Shown: positions 23,688 through 36,177 of the stretch, piece after piece | Position numbering within the stretch: the stretch's first letter is position 1 | Layout: every line of letters begins with the position of its first letter | Assembly: GCA_963785725.1 (NCBI GenBank) | Contig: CAWAWS010000007.1 | Span: forward strand, 871,919 to 935,918 | Source: an uncultured delta proteobacterium | Lineage (GTDB): Bacteria; Myxococcota_A; Polyangia; Palsa-1104 | Direction: 5' to 3' | Length of the DNA stretch: 64,000 nucleotides | Program-made: the position numbers and the translations under genes | Notes under the pieces: generated by a model | The model's input: the letters and a program-made list of their open reading frames with translations, nothing else | Database searches by the model: none | Told to the model about the DNA's origin: nothing

Positions 23688-24503
23688 ATGACCTTCCTGA
23701 ACCCGTCGCACGGTACCCCGCAGCACAACGTCCGCCGCATGAGCGGCGTCGCGGTCGGCGTCGTCACCAACAACGTCGACGACAACAGCGGCTACCGCGT
23801 AAAGGTGCGCTTTCCGTGGCTGCCGAACGGCGGCGACCAGGGCGAAGAGAGCCATTGGTGCCGCATCGCCACGTTCATGGGCGGGCCCGATCGCGGCGCG
23901 TTTTGGCTGCCCGAAGTGAACGACGAGGTGTTGGTCGCGTTCAACCATGGTGATCTGGAGCACGGTTTCATCATCGGCGCGCTCTGGAACGGCAGCGACA
24001 AGGCGATCTACAGCAACAAAGACGCCAGCGGCAAAGTCACCGACGCCGCTTTCCAAGGCAAGAACGAAGCGAAGAAGAACGATCTGCGCGCCATTCGTTC
24101 GCGCATCGGCCATCAGCTCATCTTCAACGACAACGCGTCCGAGCCGCGCGTGGCGCTGCACTCGGCGCAGAAGCATCGCATCGTGCTCGACGACAAGAAC
24201 AACGCGCCGACGCAGATCGAGATTTACGACGGTAAAGAGGAGAACTACATCCTCATCGACACGGTGAACAAGAAGATCACGATCGAGTCGAAGTCGGGCG
24301 ACATGCTCCTGAAGTGCAAGGAGACGTTCTCGATCGAGGCCAAAGAGATCAAGCTCAAGTCCGATCAGAACACGACGCTCACAGTCGGCAAGAACTTCGA
24401 GATGAAGGCCTCTTCGAACATGACGATCAAGGCGTCGGGAACGGGCGACGTCGAGTCGTCGGACGCGATGACGATCAAGGGCTCGAAGGTCAACATCAAC
24501 TAA
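23688..24503 (+). CDS. Baseplate spike protein (gp5 / baseplate assembly protein V, eCIS-type)
   Basis: OB-fold GVVTNNVD...RVKVRFPWL...WCRIAT...LPEVNDEVLVAF..GD...IIGALWNG, then beta-helix repeats ending IKGSKVNIN. RBS GGAGG. Confidence 0.92.
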   Translation: MTFLNPSHGTPQHNVRRMSGVAVGVVTNNVDDNSGYRVKVRFPWLPNGGDQGEESHWCRIATFMGGPDRGAFWLPEVNDEVLVAFNHGDLEHGFIIGALWNGSDKAIYSNKDASGKVTDAAFQGKNEAKKNDLRAIRSRIGHQLIFNDNASEPRVALHSAQKHRIVLDDKNNAPTQIEIYDGKEENYILIDTVNKKITIESKSGDMLLKCKETFSIEAKEIKLKSDQNTTLTVGKNFEMKASSNMTIKASGTGDVESSDAMTIKGSKVNIN

Positions 24504-24536
24504 GCGGCAGCCTCACGAGTCGGGAGACACTGTTTC

Positions 24537-25409
24537 ATGCCGAGCCTGCAGTTCATCAAGATCCTCGGGAATCTGAAGTTCTTCTCGCATGGGCTGAAGC
24601 TGCCGGTGAATTGGCAGGCGCCGTCGGGGAGCGATCCGAGCAAGCAGTACAGCGACTCGCTGCAGCCGTCGGAGAAGGTGGCGGTGCCGCAGCTGATTCC
24701 GCCGTGGTTCATGCCGCAAGAGCCGCAGAAGTATTTTCAGGACAGCGCCGACAAGATCGGCAACGAGTTCAAATCGTTTCACGACTCGATGCTCGACGCC
24801 GTGCAGTTCGGCCACAACATGTGGAAGCTGCAGGCGAAGTTTCAGAACCTGCAGGTGATGGGGCCGTCCGCGATCGGCTCGCCCGGCTGTCTCGATGGGC
24901 CGGAGCTGGAGTCGCTCATCAAGAACGCGCCGCAGTGCGCCGCTTTCACCGGCAACAAAGCGAAGTATCGCGACGCCGTGGCCGCGGGCGTGTCGAAGTG
25001 CTTCAAGGATTGGCAAGGGCAGGTGATGGTGCCGGGGTTGCCGTGGTATCCGGCGTTCGCGATGTTTCCGGGGCCGATGGCGCCGCCGATGCCGAACATT
25101 CCCACGCCGCTGATCGCCTGTCCGTCGGCGATGATGGCGCGCATGGCGACACCGACGCAGATCGCGACCGAGATGAAGAACGCGCTCGACTCGGGCCTGC
25201 AGAACGACGACAAGTCGAAGCAGTTCGAAGCGCTGTTCGACGCGCTGGCGACGGTGATTTCGCTGGCGTTCATGATCTGGCTGCCGAGTCAGCAGGTCAT
25301 GCTGGTCATGGGCAAAGGGCAGATTCCGACGTTCGCGCCGCCGTTCGTGCCGGCGGGCCCGGTGTTGGCCGGCGACAATCTGCCGGTGCCCGGCTCGCTC
25401 ATGAGCTAG
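24537..25409 (+). CDS. Hypothetical 290-aa protein with three internal D-x12-W repeats; candidate spike tip
   Basis: Strong GC3 codon bias, RBS GGGAG, 33 bp downstream of the spike gene. Coding status is well supported; the function is inferred. Confidence 0.75.
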   Translation: MPSLQFIKILGNLKFFSHGLKLPVNWQAPSGSDPSKQYSDSLQPSEKVAVPQLIPPWFMPQEPQKYFQDSADKIGNEFKSFHDSMLDAVQFGHNMWKLQAKFQNLQVMGPSAIGSPGCLDGPELESLIKNAPQCAAFTGNKAKYRDAVAAGVSKCFKDWQGQVMVPGLPWYPAFAMFPGPMAPPMPNIPTPLIACPSAMMARMATPTQIATEMKNALDSGLQNDDKSKQFEALFDALATVISLAFMIWLPSQQVMLVMGKGQIPTFAPPFVPAGPVLAGDNLPVPGSLMS

Positions 25410-27089
25410 CCGCAGCCGTTGCCTTGGCCGTTGTCGGTGCCCGAGTCGAGGCGTCGACGTGCTCGGCTGCGGCGCGCTCGTGTTCGTCATCGTGCCGCCG
25501 TATTCGAAGCGCGGGTTACTGCCATCGGGATCGGTCGTGTAGCTGATGATCGGGATCGACGGCACCGACGGCGGCAGCTGGTTGACGACGTTCTGCACCT
25601 GGCTCTGTCGCCCCGGCGTGTTCCAGCCGTAGACGACGAGCCCGACGATCGCGTTCGGATCGTAGCCGTTGGTCTGGACTTCGTTGTTGTCGAGCGGCCG
25701 GCCTTGGTTCACCGGCTCCTCCTGCTTATGGTGCAGATCGTTCTTCAGGTTGCTCAGCTGGTCGTTCGCGCTCTGTCCGCTCATCGGAGTCTCGCCCGGC
25801 TGCAGCGTCGCGCTGCTCGCCGAATCGGTGGAGCTGATGTTGATGTAGTGCGGACCCACCTGATTCGGGTCGAGGACGATGCCGACGGTGCGTCCGAGCG
25901 GACCAGCCTGCGGCCCCATGTTGAAGAAGTTGGGCACGAGCGAGCTGTCGTTGTAGGTCCAGCGATAGCGATAGTTCGGATCCTGCGTGAAGTTCAGCGG
26001 TAAATCTCGGGTCTGTACGGTGCGGACGAGCACGCCGTTGCGGAAGATCTCTTCGACGCGCTGGCCCGTCGTCGGATCTTGGGTGACCACGACCGTCGTT
26101 CCCGACGAGCCCGAAGGACCACCGAGGCGCGGCGGGCGTATGCCGGGCGGCCGCAAGCCGGGCGGACCGGGCGGACCCGGCGGCGGCGGCGGTGGCGGCG
26201 GTCCGCCGGTCGACGACGAAGACAGCGGCGGTGCAGGCGGCGGCGGTGGCGGTGGCGGCACATGGGTCGACGTCGGCGGGCCCGGCGGCGGTGGGGGCGG
26301 AGGAGGAGGAGGCGGCGGCACGGTGTCGCCGAGAAGAATCTGCGAGCCCGACTTCGGATTGCCGTTGTGCACCCACAAGCCGCGCGCACCGACGAAGTAC
26401 GTATGAAAGTCGGCGACCTCGAGGTTGAACACCGGCACGTGCGCGTCGAGCGAGGCGACGGCCGCGATGGCGAGCGGCGCGCCCTCGGCGTCGAGCAGCA
26501 CGTCGCGCTCGGGCTCGAGCGTGCGCGCTTCGACCCAGCCGCGGCCCTCGACGTGCACGCGATGATTCGGCGTCAGCTCGAGCACGTCGACGTCGTCGCT
26601 GCCGGCTTTGGCGATCGTCAGCTGCACCAACGACCTCGACGAGCTGACGAACGTCTTGACGATCGGCTTCCAGTCGGCGGCGTCGCCCTCTTGATCGCGC
26701 GACCACACGCGCGTGCCTGCGGTCAGCGACTCGATCGGCCGCAATCCGGCGTCGGTCAGGACGAGCGTGCCGGCGACGAAGCAGCACTTGCCGCCGACGC
26801 AGGTCGTGCTCGGCGTCGGACCGGCGCTGCCCGGCGGCGGCGGCGGCGCGTCGTTGGCAGCGAGCGTGCCGTCGTCGCAGCTGACGTTGTCGGCGTCGCC
26901 GCTGTCGCTGAGCAGGGCCGAGAGCATGCCGTTGGCCTTGGCGACTTTGCAGCGGTACTTGCCGCCGAACTTCTTGAAGCCGCCGACGCCGACGATCGCC
27001 GTGATGGCGATGAAGACGACGATGGTGATGTACTCGACGGCCGACGCGCCGCGCGTAGGGCGGCTTCGTCGCGACAAGGCGGGACGCAT
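25406..27089 (-). CDS. Flp/Tad pilin - HINT - polyproline - unknown C-terminal domain fusion (~560 aa, one frameshift near 25450)
   Basis: AGGAGGAG RBS before the ATG at 27089. RG^ASAVEY plus hydrophobic helix; HINT from CFVAGTLV (26783) to VFNLEVADFHTYFVG..GLWVHN (26364). Removing one base near 25450 gives ...LDSGTDNGQGNGCG* ending in a CTAG shared with the convergent gene. Confidence 0.85.
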
Positions 27090-27203
27090 GACTCCTCCTG
27101 AGTCGGGCCTGGTTTGCAAACGCGGCACCGCACGCGCGTCCTTCGATTTCAGCGGTTTACGCAGCCAGCTGGGGCGCGCAGCCTCGGCGGTGGGTGGGAA
27201 AGT

Positions 27204-34572: not shown

Positions 34573-35904
34573 TTAGTAGGTGAAGCAGCTGGCGCCCGTG
34601 CAGTACACGTGCGCGACGCCGTAAGGCGCGTTGATGAGGACCTTGCTCGAGGCGCCGTCGATCGTGCCGCCGGGGATGGCGAAGTTGATCGTCGCGTTGC
34701 TGCTGGCCGCGCCGCTCTCGTCCTTGATGACCAGGTAGACCGGGTTGTTCGCCGTCCCGGCGCCGCTACCTGTCAGCGTGTGCGTCGAGGAGATCGAGGT
34801 GTAGGCGACCAAGTAATCGTTGGCGGCAAGCGTGCAGTCCGCGTCCACGACGCCGCGACGATGCGGTTGCACCGCGCCGTTCTGCACAACGTTGCCGTTG
34901 ACGGTCTCGTCTTGATTCGCGACGAGCTGTCCCTGCACTTTCGTAGTCGACGAGGGGCCGCCGATGATCACGCCGGCCGCGGCGTCGGTCGCGCTACGGG
35001 TGCTGCCGATTCCGATCTCGACGTTGTCGGAGCTGTCCAAGAACATCAGCGACAGGAAAGTCGTTGCTTCGGCGTTGATCTGCGTCAGCAGAAGCTTGTT
35101 GTTAACCAAGCCGCGCATTTGCATCCCGTTGACGAGGCCGAAGACACCAGGCGTCAGCGAGAGCCACTGTTTGTGCGTCGTATCGACGTACTGAAAGAGA
35201 TTGGCGGTGATGTAGCCTTCGATGTCGCCCGTGTTGCGATTGAACATCCAGCTCTGCGGGCGATAGTAAGCACCGCTATTCGTGATGAAGACGATGTGGT
35301 GCTCCATGAACTCGGTGCCGACGTTCGGCGCGTAGTAGCTTTCGAACTGCAAGCCCATTGCGGCTTCGCCGGGCGTGACCTGCTTGCCGTACGCAGTCAA
35401 GTTCCAGCCGAAGTCGAGCACCTGATCGAGTCGCGTCGAACCCGCGAAAGAAGCGGCACCGAGCGTTTCGTACCAGGTCGACGTGCCTGCCTCTCCTGGG
35501 GTAACAGTCTTCAAGAAATCGTCACCGACGTTGCCGAGGCGCAGTGTCGCGCCGTCGCTGTTCAGCAACGACAGGTAGGCAAATTGGCTCGTGTCTGGCG
35601 ACAGCACTGCGCAGCGCGCACACGGATCGGTGCTCGGCGTACCCGGCGGTCCCACCGGACCCTGCGGGCCTACCGGTCCGGCGGGCCCTTGCGCGCCAGT
35701 GGCTCCTTGCGCTCCCGTCGCTCCAGCGGGTCCAACCGCGCCCGCGGCGCCAGTCGCACCCGTTGCGCCGACGCTCGATGAGTCTGTCGAATCGGGCTCA
35801 TGATCGGCTTGACCAGAACCGCCAACCGAGCAGCCAGCCGCCGCCGCCGCGATCACTACCGCAAGATGGAGCTGTGCCTTCTTTCGTTCGAACCCGTTGC
35901 GCAT
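34573..35904 (-). CDS. Lipoprotein with collagen-like repeats and tail-fibre-like C-terminus
   Basis: ATG at 35904 after GGAG; lipobox AAAAGC; ~15 G-X-Y triplets; C-terminal LVIKDESGAAS...TIDGASSKVLINAPYGVAHVY. Confidence 0.72.
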   Translation of the reverse strand: MRNGFERKKAQLHLAVVIAAAAAGCSVGGSGQADHEPDSTDSSSVGATGATGAAGAVGPAGATGAQGATGAQGPAGPVGPQGPVGPPGTPSTDPCARCAVLSPDTSQFAYLSLLNSDGATLRLGNVGDDFLKTVTPGEAGTSTWYETLGAASFAGSTRLDQVLDFGWNLTAYGKQVTPGEAAMGLQFESYYAPNVGTEFMEHHIVFITNSGAYYRPQSWMFNRNTGDIEGYITANLFQYVDTTHKQWLSLTPGVFGLVNGMQMRGLVNNKLLLTQINAEATTFLSLMFLDSSDNVEIGIGSTRSATDAAAGVIIGGPSSTTKVQGQLVANQDETVNGNVVQNGAVQPHRRGVVDADCTLAANDYLVAYTSISSTHTLTGSGAGTANNPVYLVIKDESGAASSNATINFAIPGGTIDGASSKVLINAPYGVAHVYCTGASCFTY

Positions 35905-36177
35905 TCTCGACTCCGCCATGATGTCGTGCCTGCTTGTCCATTCGGCGTAGAACGGAGCGACTTGAGGTCGCGGGCTGCGAAACCACTGCAGCCCGAGATT
36001 CGATCCCGACCTGTTCCACGAACGCCGAACGGTCGACAATCTTGCAGGCGCCGGCCGTCACTCTTGATACCCGTGACGCCAGGAGAAAGACGGTGTCTTG
36101 GTCACAGCGAGAGGGGTCGGGCGGCGCATTTCGGCCGCGCTGGACTCACTCGACGTAATCCTTTAGAAGATGGGACT

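Follow-up and report, generated by a model that had tools for sequence, protein, structure and literature searches.

A Flp-like pilin head fused to a HINT domain and a variable tip: candidate Tad-exported polymorphic toxins in Polyangia

We analysed a stretch of 64,000 nucleotides from an uncultured delta proteobacterium (GTDB lineage Bacteria; Myxococcota_A; Polyangia; Palsa-1104; assembly GCA_963785725.1, contig CAWAWS010000007.1, positions 871,919 to 935,918 of the forward strand), referred to here as the window and numbered from its first letter. Its minus strand carries a gene that joins a Flp-type pilin head, a cysteine-bearing linker, an intein-like HINT domain of the kind found in polymorphic toxins (PT-HINT), a proline-rich linker and a variable C-terminal tip, and the same fusion recurs in a family of proteins with many different tips. 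Together, the evidence suggests that these proteins are pilin-headed polymorphic toxins that would be exported by a Tad (Kil-like) pilus machine by means of the pilin tag, a reading to which we assign a probability of roughly 60%. On that reading they would form a class of polymorphic toxins with a new mode of export, and the finding reaches beyond a single gene. The architecture appears to work like that of a polymorphic toxin, with full membership in the classical sense applying only to the type, described below, that is paired with putative immunity genes.

The gene starts at ATG 27089, and its parts are listed in Table 1. A first-pass annotation, made from the letters alone, had described a strong ribosome-binding site, a type IVb prepilin N-terminus, a short linker and a complete HINT domain in one open reading frame, and each of these elements was recovered: AGGAGG lies four bases 5' of the start; the basic leader, the G14|ASAVEY motif with Glu+5 and Tyr+6 and the hydrophobic helix are all present, residues 15-39 being the most hydrophobic segment; the linker carries Cys47, 71, 97 and 102; and the HINT domain (amino acids [aa] 103-242) runs from CFVAGT through TPNH at 173 to VHN-G. 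Pilin and HINT share a single open frame, and database homologues carry the same fusion. A regulatory hairpin over the ribosome-binding site was considered and rejected (z 0.89).

Of the two Pfam matches that the first-pass annotation had proposed to look for, PT-HINT was clear (72.1 bits against a cut-off of 27.7, E 7e-20) and Flp_Fap fell below the cut-off (15 bits against a gathering score of 32.2, E 0.022). The best Flp_Fap score among the paralogues in the same genome is 28.4 bits, and even the 72-aa Flp-like pilin encoded in this genome goes unmatched by Flp_Fap, so the model suits this clade poorly. The N-terminus is nevertheless 43-48% identical to Flp-like major pilins of its own genome and of relatives, and a profile of the family matches the Caulobacter Flp pilin 8u2b at E 0.0096. 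Of 90 members examined, 82 gave a parsed motif, and 78 of these have Gly at -1. The same profile matches 2lwy at E 4e-35 and 8w20 at E 6e-20. The first-pass annotation, which had inferred a minor pilin, needs a correction here: the head is nearest to the Flp major pilin rather than to TadE-like minor pilins. In a protein of about 560 residues with HINT and tip, the Flp-like part is the head only, so that by its sequence the head is Flp-like, yet the protein is not a Flp pilin in the strict sense. The part behind the HINT domain, about 320 residues, consists of a poly-proline linker of about 83 residues, some 210 globular-looking residues and a short tail.

Across the family the HINT domain is well preserved, with Cys1 kept in 87/90 members, TxxH in 86/90 and a terminal His-Asn (HN) in 86 of 89 proteins. 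The residue that follows fits cleavage over canonical splicing, in line with the first-pass annotation: among 89 proteins it is Ser in two and Thr in eight (10/89 together) and Cys in none; in the window gene it is Gly. The other cysteines follow a pattern of their own. From the pilin helix to HINT, 79 of 82 proteins have an even number of them; the interior of HINT has none in 91/93, and the tip has an odd number in 82/93 (this set of 93 leaves out nine short fragments, and three further rows were dropped in parsing). Tip cysteines lie within 6 residues past HN only in 64 of the 93, in the last four residues only in 14, at both places in five and at neither in 10, where rates of 3% (after HN) and 2% (C-terminus) would be expected. 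Counting one protein per tip cluster gives the same picture (odd in 62/68; positions 48/9/4/7; Fisher p 1e-4; two rows dropped). Presumably, as in inteins, the two ends of the HINT domain lie close together. Most simply, the linker cysteines would pair with each other and Cys1 with the tip's spare Cys; such a pair would in turn imply that the compartment is oxidising and that the tip remains bound once cleavage has taken place. Judged from this pattern, a disulfide tether between HINT Cys1 and the spare tip Cys is probable.

The family was collected in several ways, and all family and genome-sample counts given here are lower bounds. A word-based search returned 82 proteins, 13 of which cover more than 88% of pilin plus HINT, and a profile built on the pilin, the linker and the first HINT residues matched 1,067 representatives at E <=0.001. 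We examined 157 proteins (16 chosen from the word search and 141 new ones among 150 listed profile matches), and 99 of them have both pilin and HINT, a figure that is a yield and not a frequency since the profile favours fusions. The first-pass annotation had proposed to ask whether the C-termini vary while the N-termini are conserved, and they do: with ten genomic members added, 99 tips of at least 60 residues fall into 71 clusters, 53 of them singletons, and the six paralogues of the host genome have six unrelated tips.

By Pfam, run on sets of 17, 30, 30 and 25 family proteins, the tips often resemble known toxin enzymes. Peptidase_M91 was above cut-off in four of the 17 proteins of the first set, and other tips over cut-off match ADPrib_exo_Tox, Scabin-like, Tox-ART-HYD1, Gln_amidase, Gln_deamidase_2, TcdA_TcdB and Gly_transf_sug, as well as Ribonuclease, RNAse_A_bac, WHH, Tox-HNH-EHHH, GH-E, HNH, Ntox16, Ntox21 and Tox-MPTase4; P0108 has a weak ADP-ribosyl cyclase match. 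The majority of family tips have no Pfam match. Among these, P0151, P0154, P0162, P0213 and P0134 carry motifs that resemble those of CNF1/CheD-like deamidases, and P0189 motifs that resemble those of ribosome-inactivating proteins. Database labels for the members read HINT-domain protein, Flp pilin or hypothetical only. The closest named homologues are labelled Polyangia bacterium, and four of 30 proteins looked up come from cultured Pendulispora: two from P. rubella and one each from P. albinea and P. brunnea. Pendulispora members include WP_394832720.1, WP_394839142.1, WP_394826115.1 and WP_394850761.1. Two variations were seen in passing: P0011, P0012, P0115, P0122, P0139, P0213 and P0217 have at least two HINT domains, each followed in some of them by its own toxin domain. 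The products of five loci in relatives (L010, L012, L014, L022 and L025) are Cys-rich, look secreted or like lipoproteins, and end in a HINT domain without any tip, so that HINT is put to another use there.

The family is patchily distributed. In 401 genomes of the class (seven candidates scored in each) pilin plus HINT was found in the host genome, in G292 (two loci), in G272 (one) and, by inspection, in G022, and 138 genomes of another family added the carriers G406, G407 and G408. A search of 14 further genomes from the host's own family found no member, and 73 genomes of the family of G305 gave 15 HINT matches with no pilin head recognised in the parsed loci. In a sample of the phylum (four candidates scored per genome) 13 of 401 genomes matched at 1e-40, with a pilin head recognised in the host genome only, and a DNA pattern scan of genome contigs gave at least 118 loci, with two true pilin-HINT loci among the matches listed.

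Two types can be told apart in these genomes. The short-linker type, to which the window gene belongs, consists of pilin, Cys linker, HINT, Pro/Gly linker and tip, and an immunity-like neighbour was found in none of nine loci (six in the host, two in G292, one in G272), no search having been made elsewhere in the genome. In the second type (G406-G408) Gln replaces Glu+5, a helical pre-toxin region is present and the tips are of nuclease type; its genes stand in tandem arrays directly behind genes for a secretin, an FHA-ATPase and platform proteins and each has behind it a small gene in the same orientation that matches DUF4279, DUF6334, DUF4265 or DUF6714. From their position, and from what is known of such families, we infer that these DUF genes encode immunity proteins. 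The arrays in Tad loci are the strongest genomic link of the architecture to a Tad machine. Altogether, G022 (about 10 kb from RcpC), G406, G407 and G408 have pilin-HINT genes either among their Tad genes or at most some 10 kb away from them, and RcpC is present in 5/5 other carrier genomes tested.

The host assembly (8.9 Mb, 88% complete, with the window at the end of contig C7) has six PT-HINT matches, and all six are Flp-led with the same head and Cys linker. These paralogues are 38-44% identical over N-terminus and HINT. Three of their tips, that of the window gene included, carry motifs that resemble those of ADP-ribosyltransferases; one clusters with tips showing a His...Cys pattern presumably like that of permuted papain-like peptidases; and another, rich in Gly, has hydrophobic stretches. 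Small co-oriented genes are absent behind all six: five face a convergent gene, and one precedes an FHA/sigma-54-type regulator. The genome check that the first-pass annotation had proposed turned up both a Tad machine and prepilin peptidases: contig C15 carries RcpC, an FHA-fused ATPase, two T2SSF platform genes, a second ATPase, TadE- and TadG-like pilins and the 72-residue Flp-like pilin, with one paralogue about 6 kb from the Flp gene; a secretin adjoins a short A24 peptidase on C4; a second A24 peptidase lies on C24; and the genome has four secretins. An FHA-fused ATPase and a short peptidase are Kil hallmarks (PMC8460266, PMC12075869), and by gene content the Tad locus of this genome is Kil-like. 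Two further pilin-like genes lie on C15. One encodes a 77-aa pilin in the TadE/TadG operon (L004, G000:C15:211152-211385, minus strand) with the Cys pattern of the family head and no HINT, possibly an ancestor or an adapter pilin; the other, at the edge of the Tad locus, encodes a Flp-led protein of about 1,170 residues without a Pfam match (L006, G000:C15:225208-228726, minus strand).

These findings can be combined into a sequence of steps. The protein would be inserted into the inner membrane so that all that follows the pilin helix lies beyond the cytoplasm, and cleavage after Gly14 would be the work of a prepilin peptidase; processing of this kind is very likely, given the motif. Use of the Tad machine is likely, and the head may then be incorporated into the Tad pilus as a rare subunit, because it resembles the cell's own Flp pilin; we favour incorporation over anchoring and shedding by a modest margin. 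From what is known of the HINT family, the domain would cut after its terminal Asn without splicing, which we hold with good confidence. The cut tip would be held by the disulfide to Cys1 until reduction at or in the target cell frees it, much as the A chain of an AB toxin is released, and would then act as an enzyme toxin, for which the Pfam matches speak in many members and an ADP-ribosyltransferase-like suggestion in the window copy. Assembled in full, the picture of a Polyangia Tad/Kil pilus armed with toxin-bearing Flp subunits that are self-cut, disulfide-leashed and dropped on a reducing target is a tentative one, to which we give slightly less than even odds.

A number of points weigh against this picture. 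A folded passenger of 60 kDa must traverse the secretin, and Flp pilins are described as helices of 50-80 residues (PMC12075869). Glu+5 is absent in 11 of 82 members and is Gln in the immunity-paired type. Five of the six host paralogues lie far from the Tad locus, and Flp-like pilins occur also in relatives without the pilin-HINT family; as Tad is common in the group, its co-occurrence discriminates little. Four of the six host tips have no Pfam toxin match, and a fifth matches Gln_amidase just below cut-off (24.0 against 24.1). Control PT-HINT proteins without a pilin also have a post-HN Cys (33 of 36 parsed, of 66), so that this feature is not peculiar to the family and a disulfide tether would be general to PT-HINT toxins; a far C-terminal Cys is rare in these controls (2/36). 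The window copy itself is frame-broken in the assembly, and its tip had no match in Pfam, NCBIfam, PHROGs, PDB sequences or Atlas, scored weakly against an ADP-ribosyltransferase profile (2.3 bits, with 8/200 shuffles equally high) and was negative in hhalign against ADP-ribosyltransferases (probability 0.3%).

Further, the window tip has a single homologue cluster, with the intact P0229/P0230; P0229 is 73% identical over the tip, and YRYRW, INISS and NNEVQ...G.DP..I.G are conserved in it. Relatives of the tip were sought among longer proteins (none in 1668 candidates), in two metagenome scans and in 41 other genomes of the order, and none was found. Its YRYRW and NNEVQ motifs align with the Arg and Glu motifs of the family's Scabin-like tips. 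A model of the tip built from three sequences reached a predicted local distance difference test score (pLDDT) of 41, and because it is so low, both fold searches made with it (best Z 4.3, best E 1.1) are uninformative. An ADP-ribosyltransferase fold for this tip is best treated as a possibility somewhat short of an even chance.

Which cells would be the target is a separate matter. The preferred reading of a Tad-exported toxin would have prey bacteria or eukaryotic microbes as targets of the immunity-free type and kin as targets of the immunity-paired type. The likely reason why the window type has no adjacent immunity gene is that folding of the tip would not take place in the cytoplasm of the producer and that the toxin would act on prey or other non-kin cells. 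It has to be weighed whether the immunity-free type is aimed at eukaryotic microbes (amoebae, fungi, nematodes), in attack or defence, and not at prey bacteria. The nine short-linker loci without an immunity-like neighbour, set against the DUF genes behind the nuclease-tipped type, are consistent with this, as are the poly-Pro tracts and the overlap of tip classes with host-directed effectors (M91, glutamine deamidases, TcdA/B-like glycosyltransferase, VIP2-like ADP-ribosyltransferase), and absent immunity genes have been read as a sign of distant targets, e.g., eukaryotes (PMC3482391). Periplasmic topology alone could, however, account for the missing gene, and Kil in Myxococcus kills bacteria (PMC8460266). 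We consider an exclusively eukaryotic target unlikely, without being far-fetched; it differs from the preferred explanation in the target only and is compatible with it.

A more basic objection is that the pilin helix is a mere membrane anchor or export signal, with HINT freeing the tip to the periplasm so that it is never in a filament, and with the soluble toxin leaving through a secretin (a type II secretion system [T2SS]-like Tad or T2SS itself) or in outer-membrane vesicles. The size of the passenger, the loss of Glu+5 in part of the family, the four secretins of the genome and the majority of copies unlinked to tad genes would all fit such a route. Yet Glu+5 is present in 71/82 and Tyr+6 in 73/82 members, the head keeps its 43-48% identity to the cell's own Flp-like pilin, G406-G408 have their arrays inside Tad loci, and a tether Cys would be hard to account for if the tip were simply shed, all of which makes this route rather improbable.

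For the window gene in particular, decay is another explanation: the copy may be a pseudogene that has lost its tail and tether Cys, the family being real. The interval from 27089 to 25406, which the first-pass annotation had given as the extent of the gene, is 561.33 codons long, so the TAG at 25406 is out of the frame of the ATG. The start was thus correct and the end, in this assembly, was not, yet 25406 is likely the natural end. The ATG frame continues to 24513, antisense to the neighbouring gene, and GC content at third codon positions (GC3), about 0.9 before, drops to about 0.55 past about aa 545; the break lies near 25445-25450, and the 858-residue read-through was rejected as a real protein, being antisense to a conserved gene and low in GC3. 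The shifted frame holds the sole Cys of the tip, at the penultimate position, and the tip has no Cys before the break. P0229 has at its end an acidic Gly-Cys-Gly tail of the sort that the shifted frame encodes, the length at the break differs by a non-multiple of three in one contig per run (two soil runs of one study), and rpoB, rpoC and secA are each split across several frames in the same assembly. On these three grounds a natural end at 25406 is likely, and the break is most likely an assembly error. In favour of decay are the break itself, near 25450, a second paralogue that is also frame-broken and the absence of the gene from close relatives; the broken essential genes of the assembly, the codon bias that is intact up to the break and the complete tail in related contigs and in P0229 make it improbable. 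Least probable of all is splicing, in which a tip Cys or the new N-terminus would attack the Cys1 thioester so that the tip is ligated to the pilin and HINT excised: the conserved Cys1 (87/90) and TxxH (86/90) would allow it, and intein-like domains without a flanking nucleophile reportedly splice as well as cleave, but none of 89 proteins has a +1 Cys, the spare Cys at the far C-terminus (14/93) is better suited to a disulfide loop than to a splice junction, and an oxidising compartment would cap both thiols.

Table 1. Parts of the pilin-HINT gene and its two neighbours, in window coordinates
Feature	Position	Strand	Remarks
Shine-Dalgarno AGGAGG	27094..27099	-	four bases 5' of ATG
Basic prepilin leader, aa 1-14	27048..27089	-	Gly14 last; predicted prepilin-peptidase site
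Flp-type pilin helix, aa 15-46	26952..27047	-	Glu+5/Tyr+6 (G14|ASAVEY)
Cys/Pro/Gly linker, aa 47-102	26784..26951	-	Cys47/71/97/102; two disulfides predicted
PT-HINT (bacterial intein-like), aa 103-242	26364..26783	-	Cys1, TPNH, terminal His-Asn then Gly
Poly-proline linker, aa 243-325	26115..26363	-	51% Pro
Variable tip domain, aa 326-537	25479..26114	-	R...S...E motifs YRYRW 373, INISS 416, NNEVQ 468
C-terminal tail with frame break	25406..25478	-	shifted frame leads to Gly-Cys-Gly, TAG 25406-25408
Downstream neighbour, 290 aa	24537..25409	+	convergent; no immunity gene; also kept where relatives lack pilin-HINT
Upstream neighbour, 175 aa	27204..27731	-	empty site in two contigs, which run from its side straight to the downstream neighbour

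The window gene is accessory. It is absent at the site in 3/3 same-genus genomes that keep the two left neighbours (one of these loci extends for just some 420 bases past them), and in run X1 there are two contigs in which its flanks meet without it. Next to it, a lone gene with a Gp5/VgrG-type OB fold (Phage_base_V, E 1e-22) at 23688-24503 and the 290-aa gene, together spanning 23688-25409 on the plus strand, are both kept in 4/5 relatives tested at 36-82% identity and are possibly a satellite of a contractile injection system. The idea that the pilin-HINT protein is a cargo of such a system was rejected: the OB gene is convergent, is kept in relatives without pilin-HINT and was not seen beside the other paralogues. 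Nor was a type III secretion system of the needle-less kind recognised in the genome, the two FHIPEP matches being one gene of the flagellar cluster on C29 and one FlhA/SctV-type gene that stands alone at G000:C7:204881-206857 (minus strand). Elsewhere in the window, 34573-56000 has a lower GC content (about 60-65%) and polysaccharide/glycosyltransferase-like genes, with a collagen-like repeat protein at 34573-36039, and from 56300 to the contig end at 64000 GC falls from about 63% to 22-47% in AT-rich, repetitive and mostly non-coding sequence that looks like foreign, possibly eukaryotic, DNA joined to the contig.

Parts of this design are known from other systems. PT-HINT polymorphic toxins (RHS, CdiA/FhaB, Streptomyces UmbC umbrella toxins; Zhang et al. 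2012, PMC3482391) likewise have a conserved trafficking N-terminus with HINT before a variable tip, and they share toxin domains with the present family and, for the second type, also the downstream immunity-like genes and tandem arrays. They differ in that the trafficking part here is a Flp pilin of about 45 residues without an RHS, FilH or ALF stalk, and in that the window type has no adjacent immunity gene. HINT is tied to export by type II, type V and type VII secretion systems and by TcdB/TcaC in PMC3482391, and the words "pilin" and "pilus" are absent from the first 300,000 of the 357,715 characters of its text. The Kil system of Myxococcus xanthus (KilP, the adapters KilK/KilO, Tip1-4; PMC8460266, PMC12075869) resembles the present one in its G/XXXXE Flp motif, FHA-fused ATPase, short prepilin peptidase beside a secretin, disulfide-rich pilins and proposed delivery of toxin on contact. 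In contrast, Kil pilins are short helices or TadE/F/G-like trimers without an intein-like domain and with toxins that were not identified, and here the pilin carries an enzyme tip; the available text of PMC12075869 has no occurrence of "intein". In Streptococcus sanguinis PilB/PilC and Vibrio cholerae TcpB-TcpF, as described in PMC12075869, a pilin likewise carries or docks a functional domain, but the cargos are adhesins or a separate secreted protein, and none is a self-cleaving exchangeable enzyme tip.

The first-pass annotation knew of no pilin described as an export tag for polymorphic toxins. This needs one correction: a study of CD38-like ADP-ribosyl cyclase (ARC) toxins names Flp pilins in passing among ARC-associated domains, and its figure on these also includes a protein of Pendulispora albinea (PMC12605009). 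It is one phrase only, in available text that has no HINT wording for it and proposes no family, Tad link or delivery route. In the literature searched, with subscription journals mostly outside it, a Flp-toxin fusion was met only as this passing phrase; the available text of PMC13483458 has none of "pilin", "Flp" and "Tad", and disulfide retention of a cut PT-HINT tip was not found in that literature.

The toxic effectors of Tad/Kil contact killing are not identified in the available text of PMC8460266 (2021), PMC12075869 (2025) or the review PMC12428579 (2025). The family described here is a direct candidate mechanism for such killing, with the pilin itself as the toxin carrier, and would supply the kind of effector that is absent from current models of Kil killing. 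It would add a trafficking class to the catalogue of polymorphic toxins, its 53 singleton tips are a pool of uncharacterised enzymes, and the cysteine rule suggests that PT-HINT toxins generally retain the cut tip by a disulfide. Members are carried by the cultured Pendulispora rubella, P. albinea and P. brunnea, so that the proposal is testable now. If it is true, these bacteria would have a distinct toxin route in which the subunit of a type IV filament is the toxin, with immunity genes for conflict among kin and without them for prey or eukaryotic microbes.

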